Source of the DNA: an uncultured Lachnospiraceae bacterium
GTDB taxonomy: Bacteria; Bacillota; Clostridia; Lachnospirales; Lachnospiraceae
Direction: 5' to 3'
Length of the DNA: 35,416 bases
Assembly: GCA_948964755.1 (NCBI GenBank)
Contig: CAREEU010000007.1
Location: 1-35,416, forward strand
Shown here: piece after piece, positions 4,692-32,309 of the stretch
How the letters are laid out: the number at the start of each line of letters is the position of its first letter
Numbering within the stretch: position 1 is the stretch's first letter
Translations under genes and position numbers: made by a program
Notes under the pieces: generated by a model
Seen by the model: only the letters and a program-made list of their open reading frames with translations
Database searches by the model: none
What the model was told of the DNA's origin: nothing

Positions 4692-5864
4692 TCAAAAACA
4701 TTCTTTGAAAATCCCAAGTATTTCTTCATGGGTCAGCTTCTTATAGCTGCCTGGGGTGATAGCACAGGAATCCGCAATCGCTTTCAAATCGGTACTTTCG
4801 TCCACACCCAATTCACGCAAAGTCACAGGCAAGCCAATCTCCAAAATAAAATCTTCCAGCGCATTGATACCGGCACGGGCAGCTTCCTCATCCGTCTTTC
4901 CTTCCGCAGAAATTCCCCATACATTCTCGGCAAACCGCTTAAACTTTGCCAGTCCATCCTTGAAAATATGGCGGTAATAGACCGAGTGCAGTACCGCCAG
5001 CCCTGCACCATGATTGCAGTCTGTATAAGCTCCGAGCTGGTGTTCCATCTGGTGACACTGAAAATCCGTCCGCTTTCCCAGCTTGATGATCCGGTTTTCC
5101 GCCATTGTCGCATCCCACATAAGGTTACTTCTGGCCGTATAGTCTTCCGGGTTTTTGATAGCAGCCCGCAGGTTACGAATCACATTCCGCATAAGCGCTT
5201 CGGCAATGTCATCGGAAACATTATCCTCATCCGGCTCGCTGAAATAAATTTCCATGATATGCGAAAGGATGTCAAAGCTGCCGGATGCCATCTGGAATTT
5301 AGGGACGCTGTAAGTATAAGCCGGGTCAAGCAGGGCAAATCCCGGATTGCATTTCGGATAATCACGCCCCGTTTTTATTTTCAGTTCTTCGTTGGTAATG
5401 ACGGCTCCGCCGTTGCACTCGCTCCCGGTTCCCGCCACCGTGACAACCACGCCGAGAGCCAGCGGTTCAAAATCAAAGATACCGGGACGTGCGAAGAAAT
5501 CCGCCCACACATCTCCCTGATACCGGGCGGCGATGGATACCGCCTTACAGCAGTCCATAACAGAACCGCCGCCGACACCGAGGATCAGTCCCACATTGTT
5601 TTCTTTTGCCAGCTTTGCGCCTTCCAGCACCTTCGCATAAGTGGGATTTGCCATAATGCCCGGAAACTCAACGATATTCTTTCCCGCCGCTTTCAGGACT
5701 GCCATTACCTCGTCATAAATGCCGTTCCGTTTGATAGAGCCGCCGCCATATGCCAGCATGACCGTATCGCCATACTCTTTTATCAGGCAGCTCAGGTATT
5801 CCTTTACACACCCTTTCCCGAAAAACACCTTTGTAGCATTTTCAAAAATAAAATCTTTCATCAA
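4692..5864 (-). CDS. Iron-containing (group III) alcohol dehydrogenase, butanol-dehydrogenase-like
   Basis: The 390-aa protein has the GGGSVMDCCKAVS motif and conserved His residues typical of Fe-ADH. GAGGAAGG RBS is upstream. Confidence 0.85.
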   Translation of the reverse strand: MMKDFIFENATKVFFGKGCVKEYLSCLIKEYGDTVMLAYGGGSIKRNGIYDEVMAVLKAAGKNIVEFPGIMANPTYAKVLEGAKLAKENNVGLILGVGGGSVMDCCKAVSIAARYQGDVWADFFARPGIFDFEPLALGVVVTVAGTGSECNGGAVITNEELKIKTGRDYPKCNPGFALLDPAYTYSVPKFQMASGSFDILSHIMEIYFSEPDEDNVSDDIAEALMRNVIRNLRAAIKNPEDYTARSNLMWDATMAENRIIKLGKRTDFQCHQMEHQLGAYTDCNHGAGLAVLHSVYYRHIFKDGLAKFKRFAENVWGISAEGKTDEEAARAGINALEDFILEIGLPVTLRELGVDESTDLKAIADSCAITPGSYKKLTHEEILGIFKECF

Positions 5865-5876
5865 TACACCTTCCTC

Positions 5877-6992
5877 TTATGGCTGTTTTTCAAATTCCTT
5901 TGCCACATCCACAAGCAATTCCCGGATATGCAGATGCTGCGGACAGGCTTTCTCACATTTTCCACATTTCATACATTCCGAAGCCTTCCCTTTCCCGCCG
6001 CCGGTATGTACTGCGTTATAATAATAATCAGCGTTCCAGTCGTGATAAATCTGTTTGCTGTTCATGACAGCAAACAGGTCAGGAATGGAAATCTTTTTCG
6101 GACACCCCTCCACGCAATAGCGGCAAGCCGTACAGGGAATCAGATTCATGGAGCTGAAAATCTCCTGCACCCGGCCTACTGCAGCCAGTTCCTTATCCGA
6201 TAAAGGCTGAAAGTCTTTCATGTAACTGATATTGTCCTGCATCTGCTCCATATCGCTCATACCGGAGAGAACCATCATGATCCCCTCAAAGCCAGCGGCA
6301 AACCGGATCGCATAGCTGGCAAAGCTTCCCCCGTGCAATTCCTCCAGGACAGCCTTCGCATTCTCCGGCAAATTGACAAGGTTTCCTCCCTTGACCGGCT
6401 CCATGACGATCACCGGCTTGCCAAATTTCCGGCAGACCTCATAGCATTTGCGGCTCTCTACCGCCGGATCATCGTAATCCACATAATTAAACTGTATCTG
6501 TACCACTTCGATCTGCGGATATTCCGTCAGTATCTGTTCCAGAACCTCCGCCCTGTCATGGAATGAAATCCCAAAATGCCGGAATTTTCCTTCCTCCATC
6601 AGTTCCAGCGCAGTCTCATAAGCACGGCGCTTTTTGAAATAGGCAAAGTTATCCGCCCCCTGTGCGTGCATAAGATAAATATCAAAATAGTCCACTCCGC
6701 ATAGCTTTAGCTGGCTCTCAAAGAACGGGCGTATATCCTCCTGCTCCTTAAAGTAAAAATTGGTCAGCTTATTTGTCAGAATATACCGGTCACGGGGATA
6801 ACGGCTGGTAAGACAAGACTTTAATGCCGCCTCACTTTTCCCTTCAAGATAGCCGTGTGCAGTATCAAAATAATTGAACCCGTTTTCCAGAAAGGTATCC
6901 ACCATCCGGGAAAACTCCACCGTATCGACCTCCCCGCCCTTCATTGGGAGACGCATACATCCAAAACCAAAACTCTTTTTAATCTGTTCCAT
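5877..6992 (-). CDS. Aldo/keto reductase with C-terminal 4Fe-4S ferredoxin-type domain
   Basis: The N-terminal AKR TIM-barrel carries a conserved catalytic tetrad context (DTAHGY...K...H). The C-terminus has two Cys clusters, CTACRYCVEGCP and CMKCGKCEKACP. Confidence 0.8.
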   Translation of the reverse strand: MEQIKKSFGFGCMRLPMKGGEVDTVEFSRMVDTFLENGFNYFDTAHGYLEGKSEAALKSCLTSRYPRDRYILTNKLTNFYFKEQEDIRPFFESQLKLCGVDYFDIYLMHAQGADNFAYFKKRRAYETALELMEEGKFRHFGISFHDRAEVLEQILTEYPQIEVVQIQFNYVDYDDPAVESRKCYEVCRKFGKPVIVMEPVKGGNLVNLPENAKAVLEELHGGSFASYAIRFAAGFEGIMMVLSGMSDMEQMQDNISYMKDFQPLSDKELAAVGRVQEIFSSMNLIPCTACRYCVEGCPKKISIPDLFAVMNSKQIYHDWNADYYYNAVHTGGGKGKASECMKCGKCEKACPQHLHIRELLVDVAKEFEKQP

Positions 6993-8370
6993 AATCTACT
7001 TCTCCTTTTCTAAAAGTTTTTTCCCAAAATAAGCCTAAAAGCATACACGAAACCAAAGTCGAAAATGTATCCGCAACCGGCCCGGCCCATAAAATACCTT
7101 CAATCCCGAAGCAATCTCCAAGAAAAAGCATTGCCGGGATCATAAATACGATCTGCCGTGACATGGAGCAGGCTGCCGATAAAAACGGCCTGCCGATGGA
7201 CTGAAAAAATATCCCGGCGACAGAGGGCACAGGCTGGAGAAAACACGCCAGCAGGAAAATCCGGAATGACAGCACGGCAAATTCCATATATAACTCTGAT
7301 TCCTGGCCAAAAAGCCTGATAATGTTTTCCGGGAATATCTGGAATACCACCAATGCAATGCACATAATGAATATGCTTACTGCCATCGTTATACGAAATG
7401 TTTTTTTCACCCGGTCAAATTGACCGCTCCCATAATTATACCCAAGCAGCGGCTGGACACTGGTAGCAATTCCAAGAGCAACTCCAAACGCCAACTGACA
7501 GACTTTCATTGTAATGCCAAAGGTGGCCAGCGGTATATCCGAACCATACCTTGACTGTCTGCCATAGTTTACCAGCAGGTTATTCATAACGCCAATGACG
7601 AAAACCGCAGCTATCTGTGTGATAAAACTGGAAAAACCAAGCGTTATGATCTTACGGCTGATCCGTATATCTGGACACAGGAACTTTATTTTCAGTTTAA
7701 ATGTCTGAAACCGAAAAATGCAAAACACAAAGTATACCGTATTCAGGAACTGCCCGATGATCGTAGCCCAGGCCGCCCCCTGAACACCCCAATGGAATAC
7801 AAAAATAAATAAAGGATCAAGGATCATATTTGTAACACAGCCAATCAGCAGACCGACCATCGTCTCATTTGGCCTGCCATCCGCACGGATCATGCTGGCA
7901 AAAGAAATATTCACCGCAAAAAACGGGAAGCCAAGAACAATTATTTTCCCGTAATCCAGCGCATAAGGCATAATAGATTCCGTTGCCCCAAACAGGGAAG
8001 AAAGGGGACGGAGAAACACTTCAAAAAATATAAGAGATATAATCCCGGCAAATATCGTAAGTGAAATCATATTCCCTACGCTCCGGGCTGCCGCTTCCCT
8101 GTTTCCCTGCCCCAAATTCAAGCTCATAAACGCTGCAGCACCGTCTCCGATCAAAAGCCCGATAGCTAACATGATCGTTGTCAGCGGCATAATAACGTTT
8201 GTTGCCGCATTCCCAAGATACCCCACTCCCTGGCCGATAAAAATCTGATCAACCATGTTATAAAGAGAATTTACAACAAAAGAAATGATGCTGGGAATCG
8301 CATAACGAATCATCAGTTTTTCAATTTTTTCCGTCCCAAGCGGGTTCGTTATAGATGCTTCCTCAGACAT
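6979..8370 (-). CDS. MATE family multidrug efflux transporter
   Basis: 12-TM MATE architecture with the N-terminal motif LMIRYAIPSIISFVVNSLYNMVDQIFIGQ. Start is placed at ATG 8370 (MSEEAS), which has an AGGAAG RBS. The longer ORF to 8403 has none. The gene overlaps the downstream AKR gene by 14 bp. Confidence 0.75.
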   Translation of the reverse strand: MSEEASITNPLGTEKIEKLMIRYAIPSIISFVVNSLYNMVDQIFIGQGVGYLGNAATNVIMPLTTIMLAIGLLIGDGAAAFMSLNLGQGNREAAARSVGNMISLTIFAGIISLIFFEVFLRPLSSLFGATESIMPYALDYGKIIVLGFPFFAVNISFASMIRADGRPNETMVGLLIGCVTNMILDPLFIFVFHWGVQGAAWATIIGQFLNTVYFVFCIFRFQTFKLKIKFLCPDIRISRKIITLGFSSFITQIAAVFVIGVMNNLLVNYGRQSRYGSDIPLATFGITMKVCQLAFGVALGIATSVQPLLGYNYGSGQFDRVKKTFRITMAVSIFIMCIALVVFQIFPENIIRLFGQESELYMEFAVLSFRIFLLACFLQPVPSVAGIFFQSIGRPFLSAACSMSRQIVFMIPAMLFLGDCFGIEGILWAGPVADTFSTLVSCMLLGLFWEKTFRKGEVDYGTD

Positions 8371-11575: not shown

Positions 11576-11815
11576 CAGAGTTGGGAAGCAATATCTTTCT
11601 GTTGTGACTTCGGAGGAAAGTTAGAAAATCTTAGGCTTCTGTCGATCTCTAGGATTTTTTGCCATTCTCGAATGGCAAAAAAAGGGGTGTGTTTAGCCCG
11701 TTGTACGGGCGAATTGCACCCCGGTCCGTCCGGTTGGATACAGGTAAATGCAGAAGCCTTAGATTTTCTTACTTTCCGTAGAGCGGAACAACAGAAAGAT
11801 ATTGCTTCCCAACTC
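11576..11815. repeat. 240-bp nested-palindrome element with a 28-bp perfect outer stem and multiple internal hairpins
   Basis: 11576-11603 is exactly complementary to 11788-11815. The inner stem 11614-11640 pairs with 11750-11776 (27 bp, 2 mismatches). A perfect 13-bp hairpin lies at 11654-11666/11669-11681. GGGGTG...CACCCC encloses GCCCG...CGGGC. The track's 154-aa ORF here is judged non-coding. Confidence 0.75.
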
Positions 11816-11902
11816 TAGCGTCCGTCTTGACACACCCCACTCTTTATTCCAGCCATAAAACATAAAACTTCCTCTCCGCTCCCCTCCCTTTCAACATGTC
11901 CC

Positions 11903-12841
11903 CTATTTCACCAGCAAATACCCAAAATAAACCAAATATCCAACTAACATCACTACTCCTCCAAACCGCTCCAGCCGCATTTTTCGAAATACACACACCC
12001 AAAGCAAAATCCCAGCCAATATAGCAACAACGCCATCCACCAAAAATTCCAAAGCAAACGGCACTGGTACAATCAAAGCCGTAGTCCCGACTACAAATAA
12101 AATATTAAAAATATTGCTCCCCACAATATTTCCAACTGCAATATCTGCCTTTCCCTTCCGTGCCGCAATCACCGAAGTAACCAATTCTGGAAGTGAAGTT
12201 CCAAAAGCCACAATCGTAAGCCCAATTAACCGCTCACTCATTCCAAAAATAGCTGCAAGCCGATTAGCCGCATCCACTGTCACATCACTCCCCACAATAA
12301 TCAGCACCATTCCAATCAAACCGGTAAGAAGCAGCTTCCCCATCCGCTCCTGTTTTTCTTCTTCTGACTCCTGCTCTGCCATTCCCTGCTTTGCAGCCTG
12401 AAACAAATATCCAAGATAGACAAGAAAAAATCCCCAAAGCAAAACCCCTTCCACACGGGTAATCATACCTCCGCTCATTCCGCAGACCAAAAGTACAGCC
12501 GAAACTCCAATCATAAAAGGCAGTTCAATCCGAATCGTAGATTTCTGCACCGCAATTGCTGTAATAACAGAAGTAATTCCAAGAATCACTAATACATTCA
12601 TAATATTGCTTCCTACCACATTTCCAATTGTAATTCCGGCATTTCCCTTCATAGCTGCGGTAATACTAACTGCCGCCTCCGGTGCACTTGTTCCCATCGC
12701 TACAATCGTAAGCCCAATTACTAACTGCGGAATTCCGAATTTCTCCGCAATTCCAGATACCCCGTCTACAAACCAGTCAGCCCCTTTAATTAACATTACA
12801 AATCCCAATACCAACAATCCCATCTGCAATAATACTTCCAT
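11903..12841 (-). CDS. CaCA family sodium/calcium exchanger (YrbG-like)
   Basis: Two alpha-repeat halves each carry GTSAPE/GTSLPE motifs. A strong AGGAGGAAG RBS is upstream. Confidence 0.85.
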   Translation of the reverse strand: MEVLLQMGLLVLGFVMLIKGADWFVDGVSGIAEKFGIPQLVIGLTIVAMGTSAPEAAVSITAAMKGNAGITIGNVVGSNIMNVLVILGITSVITAIAVQKSTIRIELPFMIGVSAVLLVCGMSGGMITRVEGVLLWGFFLVYLGYLFQAAKQGMAEQESEEEKQERMGKLLLTGLIGMVLIIVGSDVTVDAANRLAAIFGMSERLIGLTIVAFGTSLPELVTSVIAARKGKADIAVGNIVGSNIFNILFVVGTTALIVPVPFALEFLVDGVVAILAGILLWVCVFRKMRLERFGGVVMLVGYLVYFGYLLVK

Positions 12842-12931
12842 TTTTTCTTCCTCCTTTTTTCCTTTGAATTTTTACCAGATTTACTATTCCTATTTTGTGT
12901 TATGAAAGCAGCGATTATTCTGCAACCACAA

Positions 12932-12979
12932 AAAGGGACAAAACTTTTGCATATAATATGCCAAAAGTCTTGTCCCTTT
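12932..12979 (-). terminator. Long imperfect hairpin downstream of the MATE gene (possible terminator)
   Basis: AAAGGGACAAAACTTTTGCATAT-A-ATATGCCAAAAGTCTTGTCCCTTT forms a ~23-bp stem with one indel and one mismatch. Only a weak T-run follows on the minus strand. Confidence 0.3.
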
Positions 12980-13121
12980 CTATCTCTCAGAAAGTTGTAC
13001 AGCCACGATAACAAATCGGGGGATGTTGACTGTACAATGATAACTACTCCCTTTCAACTATCTTAAGTATACCTAATTTTTACAATATGTCAATCTTAAA
13101 ACTAAAAATTTTTTAATTTTA

Positions 13122-14447
13122 TTATAAAAAAGAATATTCTCGAATTACTTTCCAAGCAAATCCTCCAGAAAGCACCATAGCAATTGTCCACCCAATCGGC
13201 CAAGACAGCCATACTGCCGTTACTCCGCCAAGATAAGCAAACAGATAAGCGAGAATCACCCGAAGAATCAAATCTGTAAAAGTAGACAACATAAACATCC
13301 GCATCTGTCCGGTTCCCCGAAGTACTCCGTCAGCCGCTAATTTAATAGAAATTACCAGATAAAAAGGAGAGACAATCCGCAAAAACTCCACACCTGTTTT
13401 CATCGCCTGTGCACTTTCATCCTTTAAAAAAAGCCCCATCATCTGCCCTCCAAATCCAAAAAAACAAACCAGAAAAGGCAGTGCCGCCAACACACCGATC
13501 CCCATTCCCGCACGCAGTCCTTCTTTTATTCGTTTTAATTTTCCCGCCCCAAGATTTTGTGCCGTAAAACTAGAAATTCCATTTCCCAATGTAGTAAAAC
13601 TGGTAATCGCAAATGTATTTAATTTAATAGCAGCAGAATAGCCAGCTATTACAGAAGATCCAAATCCATTAATCAAACTTTGAATAAAAATATTTCCAAT
13701 CGAAACAAAACTCTGCTGTAAAATACTTGGAACCGCAATGGCACCAATTTTTTTTAACATATTCCATGAAAACAGTACCGTTCCTTCTCCGTGAATGTTT
13801 CTTATTTTTTTATTCAATGTCCATAGGGCAAATACACAGGCAATTCCCTGTGCTAAAAAAGTTGCCCAAGCTACTCCGGGTACGCCCCATTGAAAAACAG
13901 CAACAAATAGATAATCTAGTACAATATTTCCAAGGGAAGAGCCGATTAAAAAGTAAAGCGGTGTTTTAGAATCTCCAAGAGAAGTAAAAATACCAGTTCC
14001 TACATTATAAAGATATAAAAATAAAAATCCAGCAATGTAAATTCTAAGATAGACGGCACCCTCTTCAAAAATATTGCTTGGTGTGCGGATCATCTCCATT
14101 AAACTGCGTGTCCCCATCAAACCTGCTCCCATTAACAATATAGATAAACCTGCTGAAGCAACTAAAGTGGTAAAGATGGCGGTTTTCATCATTCCATACT
14201 GCTTTGCTCCATATAGCTGAGAAATGACAACGGCACATCCAATATTGCTTCCAATAGCAATCGCCATAAAGATCATCGTAATGGGATAGGAAGCTCCTAC
14301 TGCTGCCAGTGCATCCTCTCCTGCAAATTTTCCAGCAATTACGCTGTCCGCAATATTATAAAGCTGCTGAAAAATTACACTGATAAACATTGGTATTGAA
14401 AAATTCCACAATACATAAAGCGGTTTTCCCTCTGTTAAATCTTTCAT
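13122..14447 (-). CDS. MATE family efflux transporter
   Basis: 12-TM MATE. The track ORF begins at a TTG codon (14513). ATG 14447 (MKDLTEGKPLYVLW) has an AAGAAGGA RBS and is preferred. Confidence 0.8.
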   Translation of the reverse strand: MKDLTEGKPLYVLWNFSIPMFISVIFQQLYNIADSVIAGKFAGEDALAAVGASYPITMIFMAIAIGSNIGCAVVISQLYGAKQYGMMKTAIFTTLVASAGLSILLMGAGLMGTRSLMEMIRTPSNIFEEGAVYLRIYIAGFLFLYLYNVGTGIFTSLGDSKTPLYFLIGSSLGNIVLDYLFVAVFQWGVPGVAWATFLAQGIACVFALWTLNKKIRNIHGEGTVLFSWNMLKKIGAIAVPSILQQSFVSIGNIFIQSLINGFGSSVIAGYSAAIKLNTFAITSFTTLGNGISSFTAQNLGAGKLKRIKEGLRAGMGIGVLAALPFLVCFFGFGGQMMGLFLKDESAQAMKTGVEFLRIVSPFYLVISIKLAADGVLRGTGQMRMFMLSTFTDLILRVILAYLFAYLGGVTAVWLSWPIGWTIAMVLSGGFAWKVIREYSFL

Positions 14448-24483: not shown

Positions 24484-26658
24484 TTATTTGGAATACTCTG
24501 CTTTTCTCTCTATAATCCAGTCCTCTAGTTTCGGAAAGTTTGGATTGGCTTGCTGCCAGGCAACAGAAACAGGCGGTGAACAATATCTGCAGCGGTTCAT
24601 TGGAGTTAGTAAGGCTTGTTTTATCTGACAGAGTGTCAGATTCGGCTGATATAAATCAACCGCACCGTCACATGGAATTGCTTTTTGAAAGGTTTGATTA
24701 AAATAAGGGGTTACAAACGGCAGAAAGCACGCCGCTATTTTTCCCTCATATAAATTATGATAGTGAGCCTGTAGGCATCGGAAAAATTGTTCTGTTTTAT
24801 CATTATCTCCCGAAACATTCTGCTTCATTGTAAAATTTTCCATTAAAGGCGAAACCCAATAAGATACCCCCTTTTTATTTAAAAATTCTTTGATTTCTTC
24901 TATTTTATCCTTCATTGGTGGATACCAAGAAATAGAAAAATAACCGTTTACTATCTTCATCAAATAAAATAGTTCATCTTCCATTTGCTTTAATAAAAGA
25001 GCATTGGTTACAACGGCTATTTTAGAATCTGGATAAACTTCTTTTGTTAAAAGAAGAAATTTTTTTAATTCTTTATTTAATAAAGGTTCCCCGCCCATAA
25101 TTCTGATTATTCCAATATCTTTGATAAATGATTTTAACTGAAAGAAATCTTTCTTAAACTGTTCATAATTGGTAATTTTCTTTTTTTCTACTAATGGAGC
25201 ATAATGCTCACATGCTTTACAATTTAAGTTACAATGATCTACAACATGATATTCCAGATAAGGTAAATAGGGACAATCTAAATAAGGTACCAGTAAATGT
25301 GATAATTCTTCTTTAGCATATTGATTTTGTTTTAATAAATTTCTTCCTATACAGTAGATATCATTAATATCCACCCCTGCCTGAATCAAATCGGTAATTA
25401 AAAAGGATTGTCCTATATAAGCAGCAGTTGGAATTACGATTGCTGCTACTTTTTGTTCCTTATATAGAGTGACAAACTTTTTTAACTCTATAACTGGTAC
25501 TCCTTTTTGCATCGATACAAAAGGTTTTTCTACAACAAAATGTGTAACTTCAAATTTATAATTATTGGGATCTAAATCCTGAAGATACATATTATATAAA
25601 TTTTCAATTAAATTTTTCGCCGTTATACTATAATTTTCTGTTCCATATACTGCAATCTGAATCCTATCTTCCAATTTTTGTATGACATTTATTTCTTCTG
25701 AATTTCTAAATGGATTATGTTCTAATAAAATAGAAAGTAAATCGCTTACTGCTTTTTCAAATTTTGATTTCTCTGCCCGAATAAAAGAACGATAATATTC
25801 AAAATCTGAAATATAGGTATCATATTCATTTACTAACTGTTCTATACAGGAACAAATTGCTGGTACATCTGCTATTGTACGTTTAAACTTATATTGATCC
25901 ATAATCGGAATATCTTCATAGTAATCTGCACTTCCATTCCTGCCTGTTACAATGCAGCAACCGCTGATTGCTGCTTCCCTTGGCATCCGATCTTTGCCCG
26001 GATGATTTCCAAAATCAATATATACCCGACTTTCCAGCATAAGATGGGAAACCTCATCTGGTGACATTTGGGCAATTGGAATCCAATGCAGATTTGGCGA
26101 AAATGCTATCAATTTATTTGTAAAATCAAGACCTTTTTTCGGATTATAAAGAACATTTAACTTACGTTTCGAAGAATCCAACAATACTTCTTCTGTAAAA
26201 AAATCTTCTCCCAAATAATCGGATACCTCAAAAATCTGTTCTTCAGAAACGCCTGCTTTTTTTAAAAAATCTTTTGCATACATGGATTGTGTCATATGCA
26301 ATATTGATTTATTTTTTTTAAAGCTATACCATTTTTCAACAGGATTTGCTAAAAAATAATTGTCTACACTTTCCCACCATATAATAACAGAACATCTTCT
26401 AAATTGAGTTTCTGCCATAACAGCCATCACTTCCGGCAAAACAATAATAGCATCCTTTTCATTATAAGTATTTACCAAAAAAGGATTTTTATATTTTTCA
26501 TATTGTTCTGGAACGGGATGCCCCATTTCAGGAGTATTATCTATATACAATAATTTTGCTATTCCAAAATGCTGTTTATTCAGTTCAAAAACAAGCTGTT
26601 GAAGCAGTTCTACCCCCCCGGTAGTAACTCTTGGCGGGGAACAAACATAAATATTCAT
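24484..26658 (-). CDS. Large fusion protein: N-terminal glycosyltransferase-like region, central unknown domain, C-terminal radical SAM domain with SPASM/twitch-like Cys cluster
   Basis: The C-terminal domain has the CxxxCxxC motif (HCNLNCKAC) followed by GGEPLL and a terminal CRYC Cys cluster. The N-terminus (VCSPPRVTTGGVELL) resembles the GT-B 'GGxE' start. ATG 26658 has an AAGGAG RBS at 7-nt spacing. The track ORF begins at a TTG codon at 26724. Confidence 0.7.
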   Translation of the reverse strand: MNIYVCSPPRVTTGGVELLQQLVFELNKQHFGIAKLLYIDNTPEMGHPVPEQYEKYKNPFLVNTYNEKDAIIVLPEVMAVMAETQFRRCSVIIWWESVDNYFLANPVEKWYSFKKNKSILHMTQSMYAKDFLKKAGVSEEQIFEVSDYLGEDFFTEEVLLDSSKRKLNVLYNPKKGLDFTNKLIAFSPNLHWIPIAQMSPDEVSHLMLESRVYIDFGNHPGKDRMPREAAISGCCIVTGRNGSADYYEDIPIMDQYKFKRTIADVPAICSCIEQLVNEYDTYISDFEYYRSFIRAEKSKFEKAVSDLLSILLEHNPFRNSEEINVIQKLEDRIQIAVYGTENYSITAKNLIENLYNMYLQDLDPNNYKFEVTHFVVEKPFVSMQKGVPVIELKKFVTLYKEQKVAAIVIPTAAYIGQSFLITDLIQAGVDINDIYCIGRNLLKQNQYAKEELSHLLVPYLDCPYLPYLEYHVVDHCNLNCKACEHYAPLVEKKKITNYEQFKKDFFQLKSFIKDIGIIRIMGGEPLLNKELKKFLLLTKEVYPDSKIAVVTNALLLKQMEDELFYLMKIVNGYFSISWYPPMKDKIEEIKEFLNKKGVSYWVSPLMENFTMKQNVSGDNDKTEQFFRCLQAHYHNLYEGKIAACFLPFVTPYFNQTFQKAIPCDGAVDLYQPNLTLCQIKQALLTPMNRCRYCSPPVSVAWQQANPNFPKLEDWIIERKAEYSK

Positions 26659-26681
26659 CTTTTTCTCCTTTACTTTTCCTA

Positions 26682-27836
26682 TTACTTTTTCCATACCTCT
26701 AATATTGCAGCAATTCGATGCCAATAAGTATGTCCCTCTATCAGTTTCTGATATGCCGCCTCCTTTACACGTTCTCTTTCTTCTATATGATTTCCATATC
26801 GTACAATCGCACGTGAAAACTCTGCAGGATTTGTAAAATATACTAATGTTTCATCTCTCTTAAAAAAATAAGCATAATCCCTCTGAAATCCAACAATAGG
26901 AAAACCTCCTGCTGCTATTACTTCCAACGTATCCCTTGGAATACCATTATGTAAAGTATGAGGTGCTAATACCAAAGTAAATTCTTTTCCGGCATAAATT
27001 TTCTTCCTCGCTATTTCATCTTCCACCAAAGCCTTTTTTTTAGAATTACAATCTGGAAACTCTCCGTTAGAATAAATTGTCATAATGGAAGCAAAATTTT
27101 GTAAAAATATTTGCTGCTGTATTCTAGTACATACAGGTGCAAAATATCGATCTGCCACAAAAAGTTTCTGCATTTCTAAAAGAAGATTCTCTGGAAGGAT
27201 ATTTCCCTTTAAAAACTCCTGTTGTACCCGAAGCAATAATCCATTTTCTAGAATATATGCCCCATATAATACCCTTTGTGCATGAATAAAAGCATCTAGA
27301 TAGCCTTTACTGTAAATGGACATTTCCTTTGTATTTAAAACATCCTCTGGGCATTTTGCAAGAAAACATACTTCTCTTTCCATAGGCACAATTTCTCGTA
27401 CACTATCTACTTCTACAGCATCAGGCAGAAAAAAGGCATTTGTAATTCCTAATTGCCATAGTTTTTCTACCAAATAACTATCACATACAAAAAAATAATT
27501 ATATCCATTCCGCACAGAAGCTGTATATAAATCAAAATTAGGAAGCTGTAAGATCCAACTGCAATAAGGAATGGCTTCTCTTTGGCAAAAATCCGATATA
27601 AACGATAAAAAATTAACAGAAAACACCATATCACCCGCTGCTGCTCGAATCTGCTCTTTCAAGGAAAGCAAAAGAGATTCCACTTTTTCTTTCTGTTGTA
27701 TTTCCTTTTTTTCTTCCCAATTCTGTATCAATTCATGTGAAAGCAGAATTGTATTTACCAAAATTCCCATCTCTTTCCATGCTTTTAGAATAGCTTTATC
27801 ATAAGGATAGCCCCATATAAGATATGTTAGCTTCAT
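26682..27836 (-). CDS. CgeB-like glycosyltransferase (DUF3880 + GT1-like C-terminal domain)
   Basis: The 384-aa protein is paralogous to 28046..29065. It ends with the typical family motif (GHTYWHRIAAIL). ATG 27836 has a GAGGAA RBS. Confidence 0.6.
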   Translation of the reverse strand: MKLTYLIWGYPYDKAILKAWKEMGILVNTILLSHELIQNWEEKKEIQQKEKVESLLLSLKEQIRAAAGDMVFSVNFLSFISDFCQREAIPYCSWILQLPNFDLYTASVRNGYNYFFVCDSYLVEKLWQLGITNAFFLPDAVEVDSVREIVPMEREVCFLAKCPEDVLNTKEMSIYSKGYLDAFIHAQRVLYGAYILENGLLLRVQQEFLKGNILPENLLLEMQKLFVADRYFAPVCTRIQQQIFLQNFASIMTIYSNGEFPDCNSKKKALVEDEIARKKIYAGKEFTLVLAPHTLHNGIPRDTLEVIAAGGFPIVGFQRDYAYFFKRDETLVYFTNPAEFSRAIVRYGNHIEERERVKEAAYQKLIEGHTYWHRIAAILEVWKK

Positions 27837-27859
27837 AATAATTCCTCGCTTATCTGTCT

Positions 27860-28045
27860 TTATTTTGATAACTTGTTTTTCAAACCTGAGAGTTCCCATA
27901 TTCGATTTAATTGATGTTCATAACTAAACTTATCTTTGACAATTTTATAACCGTTTTGTCTAATTTTTTCTGCTTCCTTTTCATGACTTAGATAATATTT
28001 GCACTTATCTAATGCCTCTTCCATAGAACTATATATCAAAAGATC
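27860..28045 (-). other. In-frame 3' continuation of the CgeB-like gene at 28046..29065, separated from it only by one TAA codon
   Basis: Translation directly after the TAA at 28046-28048 continues in frame as DLLIYSSMEEALDKCKYY...FSYEHQLNRIWEL. This aligns residue by residue with the C-terminus of the paralog (ETLVYFTNPAEFSRAIVRY...GHTYWHRIAAIL). The stop aligns with Glu, so GAA to TAA is a single substitution. Confidence 0.55.
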
Positions 28046-29065
28046 TTATCCGTCTTTAAAATATTCATTTAAATCTTCTTGATAATTTGTCATTGCTAAT
28101 GCATGACAGCCCATAATATCAATCACTCGCTGAGGGATACCCCGGCGAATATTTCGCAATGTAATATTTAAATTTATTTTACTACACTTAAATACAAGCG
28201 GCATATCATATCTATAATCTACAGGTTCACATATCTTTACATTTGGAAGTTTCGGACTATTTATGGTAAACAACTTTACATGATAATATTTTGCCAATAG
28301 TGTAAGTAAAAGTATTCTCTCTTTATTGGTTACTGCCTTTAAAAGAAAAGCAATCAATCCCCAACTTTTTACTTCTTCTACATCATGAAAAAAATTATGA
28401 TTCAAATTTTTCAATAAAGCTTCTGTTACTTTTTGATTGCATAGACGTTTAATAAGATTTTCATTAATTAATTCTTGAATAAAATTCGTACCATAAACAT
28501 TTAACTGTATATTAATCAGTGCTGCAATATAGCCTGCACCATATTCATCAAATAGGGGAAACATTTTATCCATATCTGATTGATAAAGCTGCCCAACAAA
28601 AGAAATATCTGCATGATATTTCATCCTTCCCATGGGAGTAGGTTTCATTCGACTTAAACGTCTAGCATCAGCTGCCAAAGGTAAATAATAAAAAATATTT
28701 TTTACTCCATGTTCCTGAAATTCCTCATATTCCGAAGAATCAAATAAAAAAATACGATTGGTGTCAAAAAAATGAGTTTCATTTGCTATGCCTAAGGCTG
28801 GACTATCATATGTCCAACAAATATAAAGTATATTTCTTGCATGTGCTGCCTCTGCCAACTCCAAAAAAAAATTAATAGAAAAAATTGCATCATATTTTTT
28901 ATTATCTAAGGCTTTTTCCAAATCCTCCCGAAACTGCTTACTTTGTGAATTTACTCTAGGATTTGACTTTGAATTAAATAAATCATATTCAATCCCCTGT
29001 TTCTGCATTGCTCTATACAAATCATACTTTGTAATAAAATTCCAATCATAAATAAATAGCTTCAT
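28046..29065 (-). CDS. CgeB-like glycosyltransferase, truncated by an in-frame TAA (possible pseudogene or nonsense allele)
   Basis: The 339-aa protein has an AGGAG RBS. It lacks the last ~60 residues present in the paralog. Those residues are encoded in frame immediately after the stop. Confidence 0.6.
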   Translation of the reverse strand: MKLFIYDWNFITKYDLYRAMQKQGIEYDLFNSKSNPRVNSQSKQFREDLEKALDNKKYDAIFSINFFLELAEAAHARNILYICWTYDSPALGIANETHFFDTNRIFLFDSSEYEEFQEHGVKNIFYYLPLAADARRLSRMKPTPMGRMKYHADISFVGQLYQSDMDKMFPLFDEYGAGYIAALINIQLNVYGTNFIQELINENLIKRLCNQKVTEALLKNLNHNFFHDVEEVKSWGLIAFLLKAVTNKERILLLTLLAKYYHVKLFTINSPKLPNVKICEPVDYRYDMPLVFKCSKINLNITLRNIRRGIPQRVIDIMGCHALAMTNYQEDLNEYFKDG

Positions 29066-29098
29066 ACTATACTCCTACAAAATAAAGAATAAATAACA

Positions 29099-29127
29099 AT
29101 AGGCGGTGTAAAAACCGCACCGCCTAT
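29099..29127 (-). terminator. Rho-independent terminator of flagellin gene
   Basis: The 10-bp GC-rich stem ATAGGCGGTG/CACCGCCTAT is followed on the minus strand by TTGTTATTTATTCTTTATTTT. Confidence 0.6.
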
Positions 29128-29174
29128 AGATATTCATACCATTTAATCTAATCTGTTTTTTACAACAATTACTA

Positions 29175-30758
29175 TTAACCAAGAAGAGAAAGAACTCCTT
29201 GATTGCTCTGATTTGCTTGAGCTAACATAGATTGACCAGCTTGAGCCAAAATATTATTATTCGCATATCTTACCATTTCAGTAGCCATATCCGTATCACG
29301 AATTTGACTTTCAGCACTTGTCGTATTCTCCACTACATTATCTAAGTTATTAATTGTATGCTCTAAACGGTTTTGAACAGCACCAAGGGCAGCTCTTTGA
29401 TCAGAAACCTTATTCAATGCCGCTTTAATTGTTTCAATTGCATTTAATGCATTTGTATCATCTTCTCCATTTACCTTTAAACCAGTGACACCAATTGCCT
29501 TAGCACTCATAGACTTTATATCAAGAGAAATCTGATTATTGGTTGTAGCATCTGCACCTACATGAAGATTCAAAGTTAAAGCACCTACATCAAATTTATC
29601 TGTATAACTTAACAATCTATCCACGTCAGCCTGTGTTGCCAACTGACGGTCAGTTGCACCCTCTCCTGTCTTTAAATACAGTTCTGCATTAGGATCTAAC
29701 TTACCGTTGTTGTTAATATATTTATCTAAACCATTCGCAGCAATCTCATTACCATCCTTATCAATAAATTGAACTACGCCCTTACTTGTATAGTCAGAAT
29801 AAGCGACAGAATCTACAGCAAGTTTTACAGGAGCAAGCGTAGAATAATACTTCGATATATCTGCAGCAGTCGCACCAATATCTGTCCCTATCTCTTTCCT
29901 ATTTCCATCTGAATCATATACTTCTGTCTTCAGCTTATAATGTGCACCAGTATCAGTTATAGTATTACTAGCAATTGCAACTGCTTGGCTCTTTATATCA
30001 CCTGTTCCAGCACTAGAAGAATAATAAGTTATTGTTGAATCATATGCTTCCCCAGAAGCAACTTGATAATATTCATCTCCCACTTTCTTCAAATACTTAC
30101 CTGTACTATCCGTGAAAACTGCTTCCGAATTATTTAAGAAATTACCAGAATCACTAGATGCAATCGCTACTCCATAGGTTGCACCTGTACTGTCACTATA
30201 ATATACTTTTGTTGAATCAACTGCTGTTTTCAACGTCCCTTTCGATAAAGTCTTAACGGTATTATCTTCTACATAGTAAAGGTCTTGGCTAATCACATCT
30301 ACTTCTTTATATTGGAAATTTGTGTCTTTTGCAGCATTTACATCCCCTTTTAACAAATAAGTTTCATTAAACTTCGTTGTCTCCGATACACGATCGATTT
30401 CTGTTACCAACTGATCGATCTCAGCCTGAATCGCATCTCTATCAGAAGAAGAATTCGTTCCATTTGCTGCCTTTACTGCCAATTCATTCATTCTCTGAAG
30501 CATATCCTGTACTTCTGTCAATGCACCTTCTGCTGTCTGTACGGCACTGATTCCGTCCTGTGCATTAGAAGAAGCCTGTGTCAGTCCTCGGATCTGCTTT
30601 CTCATTTTTTCGGAAATTGCCAAACCTGCTGCATCGTCTGCTGCACGATTGATCTTATAACCAGATGATAATTTTTCTGTGGATTTTGCCTGAGCCTTGG
30701 TTGTGATACCTAGCATACGATTAGAATTCATTGCTGTAAGATTGTGTTGTACTACCAT
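29175..30758 (-). CDS. fliC: Flagellin
   Basis: Conserved N-terminal ([24 protein letters not shown]) and C-terminal ([24 protein letters not shown]) flagellin domains flank a ~250-aa Ser/Thr/Tyr/Asp-rich variable region. AAGGAGG RBS is upstream. Confidence 0.9.
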
Positions 30759-30826
30759 AAAATATACCTCCTTGTAATACGGCTTGTTTCATCATTTTTC
30801 TTTTCCCTTGCCGTTTCTTTGTTATG

Positions 30827-30846
30827 CGGTCAACTCCATTTGCCGC
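30827..30846 (-). promoter_or_regulatory. Candidate CsrA-binding hairpin in fliC 5' leader (GGA in loop); a second GGA site overlaps the SD
   Basis: On the minus strand GCGGcaaatGGAgttgaCCGC presents the GGA in a loop. The SD context is caAGGAGG. This is the pattern known from the B. subtilis hag leader. Confidence 0.35.
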
Positions 30847-30894
30847 TTTGGTAAGAAAAGTCTTACCTCATTTCTTAAAAAATCTATCTCGGAT

Positions 30895-30903
30895 TTCCAC
30901 CAA
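30895..30903 (-). promoter_or_regulatory. Weak sigma-D-like -10 (TCCGAGATA vs GCCGATAT) upstream of fliC
   Basis: The match is partial. The -35 TAAA element was not found convincingly. Confidence 0.2.
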
Positions 30904-31022
30904 ATATCATTTCTTTTGATTTCTTTCCGAATTTAATAATCCGAATCGCATCCCGCTTTTGGGCCCGATTGTTGCGGACTGCTTTCGGTTATTAACCATA
31001 ATAAATAACCTCTCTTCTTCTT

Positions 31023-31277
31023 TTAGCTTCCTGCCTTCGAAGAAAATTTCTTTTTTCGAAACCGTTCTGCCAATTCCGGTTCTGCATAATATTGAGGAAG
31101 AGATCCCCTCTCTTCTTCCGGCACGTTCTGTTCCATCACTTTACTTCTCACTACACCGACTTCCTTTGGTGCATCAATCAGAATTCGAAGATGGCTTTTA
31201 CTGCCTCCTAAAAATGCAATCTTAATATTATCCCCTATCATCAGGTATTCTTCTGTACTTAGAGTCAGTCTTAACAT
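31023..31277 (-). CDS. csrA: Carbon storage regulator CsrA (flagellin translational repressor)
   Basis: MLRLTLSTEEYLMIGDNIKIAFLGG...ILIDAPKEVGVVRSKV matches the CsrA fold signature (MLVLTRK..IGD.I...V......V.IGI.AP..V.I.R.E). AAGGAGG RBS is upstream. It lies directly upstream of fliC. Confidence 0.8.
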   Translation of the reverse strand: MLRLTLSTEEYLMIGDNIKIAFLGGSKSHLRILIDAPKEVGVVRSKVMEQNVPEEERGSLPQYYAEPELAERFRKKKFSSKAGS

Positions 31278-31320
31278 CTAAAAACCTCCTTGTTTTCTCC
31301 ATGTCTTCTGTGCCAATATG

Positions 31321-31355
31321 AAAATGCAACATTTGTTAGTAAAATGTTGCATTTT
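31321..31355. promoter_or_regulatory. lox/FRT-like candidate recombination core site 1 (14-bp perfect inverted arms, 7-bp spacer GTTAGTA)
   Basis: The site reads AAAATGCAACATTT-GTTAGTA-AAATGTTGCATTTT. It lies between the divergent csrA and recombinase genes and overlaps a putative -10 (TAAAAT 31340-31345). Confidence 0.6.
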
Positions 31356-31390
31356 TAAGAAAGCAAAATTCAACGAACGGAGGATCTATC

Positions 31391-31981
31391 ATGAGCACAA
31401 CACAGCCTATTAAAAGCAAAGATGCACTGAACCAATTTAAAAATTATTATTTGCTGCAAAAACCTCAGCCAAGAAACTATACCCTGATTATATTGGGACT
31501 AAATACAGCACTGCGAATCTCCGATATTCTCACATTAAAATGGAACGATATCTATGATGACCATACTAAAACCATGAAAAAACATTTAGAAGTAATAGAA
31601 CAAAAGACTGGAAAATCCCGCACGATTGCATTAAACCGCTCTATCTGCACCACCCTAAAAAACTACCTCTCGTATTCCTTCCAGGAAAAACCCTATGAAA
31701 AAGAGCAGTATCTCTTCTTAAGTCAGAAAGGAAAGAATGAGCCAATCAGTCGTTCTCAAGCCTACCGAATTATCTGTACTGCTGCCAAAGCATCTGGACT
31801 GGATCAACATATCAGCTGCCACTCTCTAAGGAAGACATTCGGTTATCATGCGTGGAAACAGGGAACCCCTCCAGCCCTTTTAATGGATCTTTACAATCAC
31901 TCCTCCTACAGCATTACCAAGCGATATTTAAGTATTGAACAAGACGAAAGAGATGAAGTGTATTTAAAAATTACACTCTAA
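31391..31981 (+). CDS. Minimal tyrosine recombinase (phage-integrase catalytic domain only, FimB/FimE-sized)
   Basis: The 196-aa protein has the catalytic residues in order: R (NTALRISD), K (TGKSRTIAL), HxxR (HSLRKTF), H/W (GYHAW) and Y (TKRYL). GGAGGA RBS is upstream. There is no N-terminal core-binding/SAM-like domain. Confidence 0.8.
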   Translation: MSTTQPIKSKDALNQFKNYYLLQKPQPRNYTLIILGLNTALRISDILTLKWNDIYDDHTKTMKKHLEVIEQKTGKSRTIALNRSICTTLKNYLSYSFQEKPYEKEQYLFLSQKGKNEPISRSQAYRIICTAAKASGLDQHISCHSLRKTFGYHAWKQGTPPALLMDLYNHSSYSITKRYLSIEQDERDEVYLKITL

Positions 31982-31996
31982 TCCAATCACAAAAAA

Positions 31997-32031
31997 AAAT
32001 GCCGCTTATCGACAGAGGATAAGCGGCATTT
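31997..32031 (-). terminator. Strong hairpin terminator (14-bp stem, 7-nt loop) with A9 on the plus strand, giving T9 on the minus strand
   Basis: AAATGCCGCTTATC-gacagag-GATAAGCGGCATTT is the stem-loop. On the minus strand it is followed by TTTTTTTTT, so it terminates transcripts arriving from the ABC-transporter side. On the plus strand it is a weaker terminator for the recombinase gene. Confidence 0.65.
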
Positions 32032-32109
32032 CCCTTGAAAAATAAAAAATTTAAAAAAATTCAAAAACGCTATAAAGTATTTTATAAAAACACCGATATA
32101 AAAAATATA

Positions 32110-32144
32110 AAAATACAACATTTTACTAACAAGTGTTGTATTTT
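32110..32144. promoter_or_regulatory. lox/FRT-like candidate recombination core site 2 (spacer TACTAAC, exact reverse complement of the site-1 spacer)
   Basis: AAAATACAACATTT-TACTAAC-AAGTGTTGTATTTT matches the reverse complement of site 1 at 32 of 35 positions. The arm changes within site 2 are self-consistent (G to A in both arms). Confidence 0.6.
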
Positions 32145-32309
32145 TATTTTTTATAAAGTATCTTCCTTTTCTATTCTACTAAACAGCATAAACAAAAGCA
32201 AATATTTTTATACATATCTATCATATCTTATAAAATTCAAGAAAATTTTTCATCTTTTTCCTAAATTTTCTGTATTTTACAACACATTATACAAATCAAA
32301 TATTCTATT

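Follow-up and report, generated by a model that had tools for sequence, protein, structure and literature searches.

In the 35,416-nucleotide stretch of an uncultured Lachnospiraceae genome analysed here (the window), a glycosyltransferase gene next to a flagellin gene, called GT_A below, is broken by a single in-frame TAA, which raises the question of whether this codon is a sequencing error, the ordinary end of a shorter protein or a true mutation and, if the last, what it does to the enzyme. An earlier note on this DNA had offered three readings, namely a nonsense mutation of very recent date, an error in sequencing and a polymorphic allele. The answer reached here is that the stop, designated Q340*, is a genuine, very recent and segregating nonsense allele. 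The explanation as a whole, namely a recent Q340* in a flagellin-locus glycosyltransferase that is likely to inactivate the enzyme, with flagellin as the probable substrate, is given a probability of about 0.85.

The GT_A open reading frame runs on the minus strand from an ATG at 29065 to a TAA at 28048..28046 and encodes 339 aa (28049..29065), after which the same frame continues for 61 further codons until a second TAA at 27862..27860. The full frame (27860..29065, minus strand) comprises 401 codons plus the natural stop and is interrupted at codon 340 by the premature TAA (28046..28048, minus strand); the mutated base is 28048, an A on the plus strand and a T on the coding strand. The orphaned tail (27860..28045, minus strand) consists of the 61 codons and the natural stop, and the probability that as many codons would stay open by chance is, by our own arithmetic, ~0.007 at ~30-33% GC. 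A Pfam search was run on the 401-residue read-through protein with the stop masked; it returned PF12996 (DUF3880/YkvP_N) at residues 83-161 (65.7 bits, cut-off 25.2) and PF13524 (Glyco_trans_1_2) at residues 272-389 (80.5 bits, cut-off 25, E = 1.5e-22), and the latter match is continuous across codon 340. In BLASTP, the alignment with the intact paralog GT_B (26682..27836, minus strand; 384 aa), which has the same two-domain architecture and is only ~20% identical overall, likewise passes the stop and reaches the C-terminus.

The observation is therefore confirmed as real, and the frame beyond the stop is no chance open frame. The earlier note was right that the ORF 28046..29065 ends at the TAA at 28046-28048, beyond which the same frame and the Pfam domain continue, and that ~60 codons further on align with the C-terminus of the paralog at 26682..27836, the number being 61. 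The H-x-Y-x-HR-I motif that it placed in the tail did not stand: HTYWHRI belongs to the paralog, whereas the GT_A tail reads FSYEHQL and only Y-x-H is common to both. Its statement that the stop lies opposite a Glu holds for GT_B, but the change from GAA to TAA derived from it does not, because the conspecific intact alleles have CAA.

A protein search recovered many full-length GT_A orthologs alongside a 401-aa protein (MCX4268048.1, 'DUF3880 domain-containing protein, Lachnospiraceae bacterium') that is identical to GT_A at 398 of 401 residues and has Gln at residue 340. Codon 340 is CAA in three contigs of conspecific strains with ~99% nucleotide identity, and the mutation was thus CAA to TAA, that is, C to T on the coding strand and G to A at 28048 on the plus strand. 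Among 61 orthologs this codon is variable, encoding K (n = 29), R (n = 16), E (n = 7), Q (n = 4), D (n = 3), N (n = 1) or V (n = 1). A second protein (P0124), 400/401 identical to GT_A, represents the window haplotype itself (E47, R139) with Gln at 340, and it is present in four further runs (SRR27010433, SRR9052927, DRR775640 and SRR22017155). The contig from SRR27010433 (L011), which carries the intact allele, matches 7,607 bases of the window with a single exception, base 28048, and three other contigs with the intact allele (L012-L014) also differ from the window at base 28048 only.

Q340* arose on one defined haplotype, and not a single substitution separates it from the intact sister haplotype downstream of the stop. 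As nothing else has changed around the stop, and nothing in the orphaned tail, the mutation is very recent. A single substitution had been proposed as the origin of the stop, and the preserved downstream frame had been taken as a sign of recency; the one-base difference from the intact sister haplotype and the tail without accumulated substitutions support both proposals, and with them the reading as a very recent nonsense mutation. The alternative of a polymorphic allele is equally borne out, the stop being found in at least four runs and the otherwise identical intact haplotype in four others.

The part of the protein beyond the stop was evaluated in an alignment of 61 GT_A orthologs (36-78% identity, 382-416 aa), all of which (61/61) keep the tail. 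The frequency of the majority residue is 0.673 at positions 341-401 and 0.652 at positions 1-339, and in 45 of 60 sequences the tail exceeds the head in identity to MCX4268048.1. By these measures, conservation of the tail is no lower than that of the remaining protein. Of 27 invariant residues, the tail holds two, Y345 and Y358, and of 47 nearly invariant ones it holds 10. An AlphaFold model of GT_A built from the ortholog alignment (pLDDT 94.0, pTM 0.92) predicts a beta-strand at 342-345 and helices at 348-359, 362-379 and 382-393 after the stop. In a Foldseek comparison with the PDB, the best matches of this model were retaining GT-B enzymes (MshA, PglA, BshA, TreT and sucrose-phosphate synthase; probability 1.00, TM ~0.55-0.60, sequence identity 8-12%), which points to a two-domain GT-B fold. 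As in the model, the solved structures of MshA (3c4q), PglA (8dqd), BshA (3mbo) and TreT (2x6q) combine two Rossmann-like domains with helices at the C-terminal end; GT_A differs from them in its N-terminal domain, a DUF3880 variant, and shares only 8-12% identity with them.

In the model, the lost tail provides the C-terminal Rossmann-like domain with its last beta-strand and the GT-B fold with three helices at its C-terminal end. In enzymes of the GT-B class it is the final beta-alpha units that finish the Rossmann-like domain for donor binding, and the helix at the C-terminus folds back against the N-terminal domain; a protein cut at residue 339 is therefore likely to be unstable or inactive. 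Together, the conservation of the tail and its predicted position suggest that GT_A activity is likely lost in the stop allele. Some residual activity is possible, since invariant P311, R313, D316 and Q329, which are among the catalytic or donor-binding residues, lie upstream of codon 340 and are retained.

Among the alternatives, the one that survives best, improbable as we consider it, is that the split gene still works, either through re-initiation at TTG 28039 or ATG 28024, with the resulting fragment complementing the 339-aa part in trans, or through read-through of the UAA by tRNA-Gln at a low level, which would restore a little of the wild-type protein. These start codons lie 6 and 21 nucleotides past the stop, and a weak GGA is found 9 nucleotides upstream of the TTG, but there is no strong Shine-Dalgarno sequence. 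Gene callers do list the orphaned tail as an ORF, of 59 aa with the TTG start or 54 aa with the ATG start; however, the split organisation occurs in none of the 61 orthologs, and the sole other split ortholog, in locus L025, has two lesions and looks like decay. The break also falls, in the model, not between domains but within the C-terminal one, just before the last beta-strand. The tail has so far suffered no damage, as would be expected of a working fragment, but recency alone suffices to account for this, because the sister haplotype shows zero differences. Near-cognate read-through of UAA would insert Gln, the original residue of GT_A, although UAA is, to our knowledge, the least leaky stop codon in bacteria.

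A sequencing or consensus error, with CAA as the true codon and GT_A intact in this organism, is a very unlikely alternative given how often the stop recurs, even though it would take only a one-base difference and an intact sister haplotype does exist. The exact 339-aa product (P0121) is on record, verbatim, on 15 contigs, among them the ENA assemblies of ERR3199646 and ERR3199684, the Logan assemblies of ERR3199589, ERR3199684 and SRR20488358, and the deposited assemblies GCA_948806775.1 and GCA_949064275.1. Over the 1,206-base gene, the seven loci fetched from these 15 contigs (L004-L010) show no difference from the window. A third deposited assembly, GCA_948762045.1 (L022, from the recombinase look-up), has its GT_A gene called as 339 aa; the stretch compared there comprises the 5' 675 bases of GT_A only, which match the window exactly, the stop site lying outside. 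Taken together, the truncated gene is carried by at least four runs and three deposited assemblies. For ERR3199684 the same base was obtained by two different assemblers (ENA and Logan), and the surroundings of the stop (GACGGA-TAA-GATCTT) hold no homopolymer.

The same T across runs and assemblers effectively excludes a one-off consensus error, and the suggestion of a sequencing error is set aside, since the base was assembled independently from ERR3199646, ERR3199684, ERR3199589 and SRR20488358. Several of the samples with the stop allele share the ERR3199xxx series and may represent one host cohort and not independent populations.

That the short form is ancestral or normal, the downstream frame being fortuitous or an independent small gene, is scarcely credible. 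The two ORFs in the gene-caller listings would fit such an arrangement, but the orthologs (61/61) have the conserved tail and a length of 382-416 aa, PF13524 crosses the junction, and the conspecific strains have CAA at the codon. The comparison with orthologs in other genomes, which the earlier note had recommended, thus shows the full-length form to be the ancestral one. A genetic code in which TAA is a sense codon, or recoding of a programmed kind, would render the change silent if TAA encoded Gln, and it is very unlikely: 19 of the 29 genes in the window end normally at TAA, the other genes of the region are all uninterrupted, TAA stands at codon 340 in no relative (0/61 orthologs; CAA in the conspecific strains), and the tRNA scan found no tRNA gene in the window and therefore no local suppressor tRNA.

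A phase-variable gene switched by slipped-strand mispairing was also considered and rejected, as the change lies outside any simple-sequence repeat. The point substitution behind Q340* has the surroundings GACGGATAAGATC, from which such repeats are absent, and its reversal is therefore not easy; GT_A is no contingency locus in the strict sense. Elsewhere in the gene, a run of nine T (window ~28863-28871, minus strand; codons for N-F-F-L) could be a potential slippage site; no variation in its length was seen among the 14 contigs compared.

Returning to the nonsense allele and the function that it would affect, the genes around GT_A follow on the minus strand in the order csrA (31023..31277), flagellin, GT_A, GT_B and a radical SAM protein, then ribosomal protein S15 and PNPase. 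The flagellin gene (fliC; 29175..30758, minus strand) encodes 527 aa with Flagellin_N and Flagellin_C domains; it lies directly upstream of GT_A, and its product is the presumed substrate. The radical SAM gene (24484..26661, minus strand; 724-725 aa, domain at aa 473-565) is intact and is the last of the cassette fliC-GT_A-GT_B-radical SAM, which spans 24484..30758 and has a low GC content (~30-36%). GT_B has a ribosome-binding sequence of its own (GAGGA) upstream of its ATG at 27836, and polar effects of the GT_A stop on GT_B are possible.

The order fliC-GT_A-GT_B is kept in four other Lachnospiraceae species (L015-L018), in which GT_A is 63-78% identical; the scan of genome contigs recovered relatives with at most 78% identity and no further genome of the species itself. 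Within the species, a second strain type (L019, L021 and L026) shows only 79-83% nucleotide identity in fliC, GT_A, GT_B and the radical SAM gene, whereas the flanks (ABC transporter, FtsX, recombinase, csrA, S15 and PNPase) are 98.8-100% identical. By this comparison of strains, 24484..30758 is an allelic hypervariable island, in which the flagellin and the three enzymes appear to vary together, a pattern expected if the enzymes modify flagellin. GT_A most likely helps to build an O-linked glycan on flagellin, a role for which its gene neighbourhood is the basis.

In Pfam searches, GT_A and GT_B gave PF13524 and PF12996 only, and no Maf (DUF115) protein was found in the cassette; no NCBIfam model matched GT_A or GT_B, and a profile search of the PDB with the ortholog alignment returned no match. 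The third enzyme gave Radical_SAM and Fer4_12 only; it resembles MoaA, twitch-domain and viperin-type models weakly, with scores below threshold, and no Pfam family was found in its N-terminal 317 aa. The fusion of an N-terminal region of ~320 aa to a radical SAM domain is unusual, and uncharacterised, in a glycan cassette. No Rfam family was detected in the whole window, and a promoter and terminator scan of it gave counts at chance level; terminator-like hairpins occur after fliC (29118-29103) and near 32014-32000. The literature search yielded no paper on flagellin glycosylation in Lachnospiraceae and none on CgeB-like enzymes acting on flagellin, and the run and protein accessions gave no match in it.

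The two domains of GT_A, both above the Pfam thresholds, are those of the CgeB/YkvP-type enzymes of Bacillus subtilis (COG4641; PF13524, PF12996). JGI labels homologs that are 64-67% identical to GT_A as 'spore maturation protein CgeB', and the link to B. subtilis CgeB is by that naming; the gene context differs, being spore coat or crust for CgeB/YkvP in B. subtilis and a flagellin locus for GT_A. The flagellin glycosylation islands of Clostridia and Campylobacter offer a second likeness. A DUF3880-glycosyltransferase is part of a surface-glycan cluster in Clostridium acetobutylicum (CA_C2186-2199), where CA_C2193 (DUF3880 plus glycosyltransferase) adjoins a Maf-type protein (PMC4000134), and GT_A is the next gene after fliC and varies along with it. 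In contrast to these islands, the cassette of the window has neither Maf (DUF115) nor genes for nonulosonic-acid synthesis, and consists of three enzymes, one of them a radical SAM protein. In genetic terms, Q340* resembles the strain-specific nonsense pseudogenes of surface-antigen loci, with a single-base stop on one clonal haplotype and intact alleles elsewhere in the species; it is an ordinary strain-level null allele, a known phenomenon that calls for no new mechanism.

The proposed course of events is as follows. GT_A would be a GT-B fold glycosyltransferase of CgeB/YkvP-like architecture that helps to build the O-linked flagellin glycan. In the clone of the window, one C to T transition would have turned Gln340 (CAA) into TAA, so recently that an otherwise identical intact segment still circulates. 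Translation would end at residue 339, without the last beta-strand and the three C-terminal helices, and the product would most likely be misfolded or inactive. The flagellar glycan of the stop-allele clone would then be lost or altered, GT_B and the radical SAM protein remaining intact, and the change could carry some effect on fitness. For annotation, the 339-aa and 59-aa ORFs belong together as one disrupted gene. The stop and intact clones also form a natural near-isogenic pair, with 1 base of difference in 7.6 kb of the locus, and this pair could show whether, and how, the widespread and uncharacterised DUF3880 glycosyltransferase family modifies Lachnospiraceae flagellin, a modification that bears on how the host perceives commensal flagellins.

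Other lesions were noted in the locus. In a different strain with an intact GT_A (L003), the flagellin gene carries R89* (AGA to TGA; window 30492-30494), a codon within the LQR motif, the counterpart of the TLR5-contact region in Salmonella FliC. The recombinase gene upstream of csrA carries K75* (AAA to TAA; window 31613-31615) in a contig of the stop-allele clone (L006, ERR3199684), and the flagellin of L005 has T81N, through two adjacent base changes, together with one synonymous change. In a different species (L025:403-1591), the GT_A ortholog, 58% identical, is hit twice, by an in-frame stop at W8 and by a frameshift close to codon 265, and is followed by an intact GT_B and then a methyltransferase gene.

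Five of the five clone-level mutational events in window-like contigs fall within 28048..32119, of ~13.2 kb compared, a post hoc count on small numbers. A mismatch at 32119 in L009 was discarded as an end artefact, lying 16 bases from the contig end and being unlike the other repeat arm. The clustering is compatible with selection on the flagellar surface. It is conceivable, if doubtful, that Q340* is one of several independent, selected loss-of-function hits (with flagellin R89*, recombinase K75* and the GT_A of L025), by which the host, through antibody or innate recognition for example, drives the shedding or change of glycosylated flagella, in an island that would also be under a possibly undescribed tyrosine-recombinase cassette with inverted sites.

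This recombinase cassette lies directly upstream of csrA-fliC. It encodes a tyrosine recombinase of 196 aa (31391..31981, plus strand) that consists of the catalytic domain only; it matched Phage_integrase in Pfam, the FimB/FimE-type 'tyrosine-type DNA invertase' models remaining below threshold. Inverted repeats of 43 nt (31315-31357 and 32108-32150) enclose the gene, each arm with a 14-7-14 palindromic core whose 7-nt spacers are asymmetric and mutually inverted (GTTAGTA and TACTAAC). The cores of ~30 bp are conserved in L015 and L027, the recombinase of L027 being only 57% identical at the protein level and its flanks unrelated; in L015 the spacers read GTTAATA and TATTAAC, a joint change of the two. 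The cassette has one orientation in every contig inspected, the opposite one not being found, and it is a possible, putative flagellar switch judged by its arrangement. In 41 of 159 blocks of the collection, the contigs with the recombinase protein measure less than 2 kb, compared with 3 of 53 blocks for GT_A. The difference is in keeping with breaks in assembly, either at the inverted repeats or at flagellin repeats, and is not decisive for inversion.

In a related species (L016, RGIG8731 MAG), no long inverted repeats surround the recombinase, and an apparent inverted repeat between the 5' codons of integrase and flagellin was rejected as a probable by-product of the conserved N-terminal coding sequence. 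The same contig holds two recombinase-flagellin modules (5141-7909 and 11669-14202) at a distance of ~6.5 kb, an arrangement that suggests a recombinase of its own for each flagellin gene.
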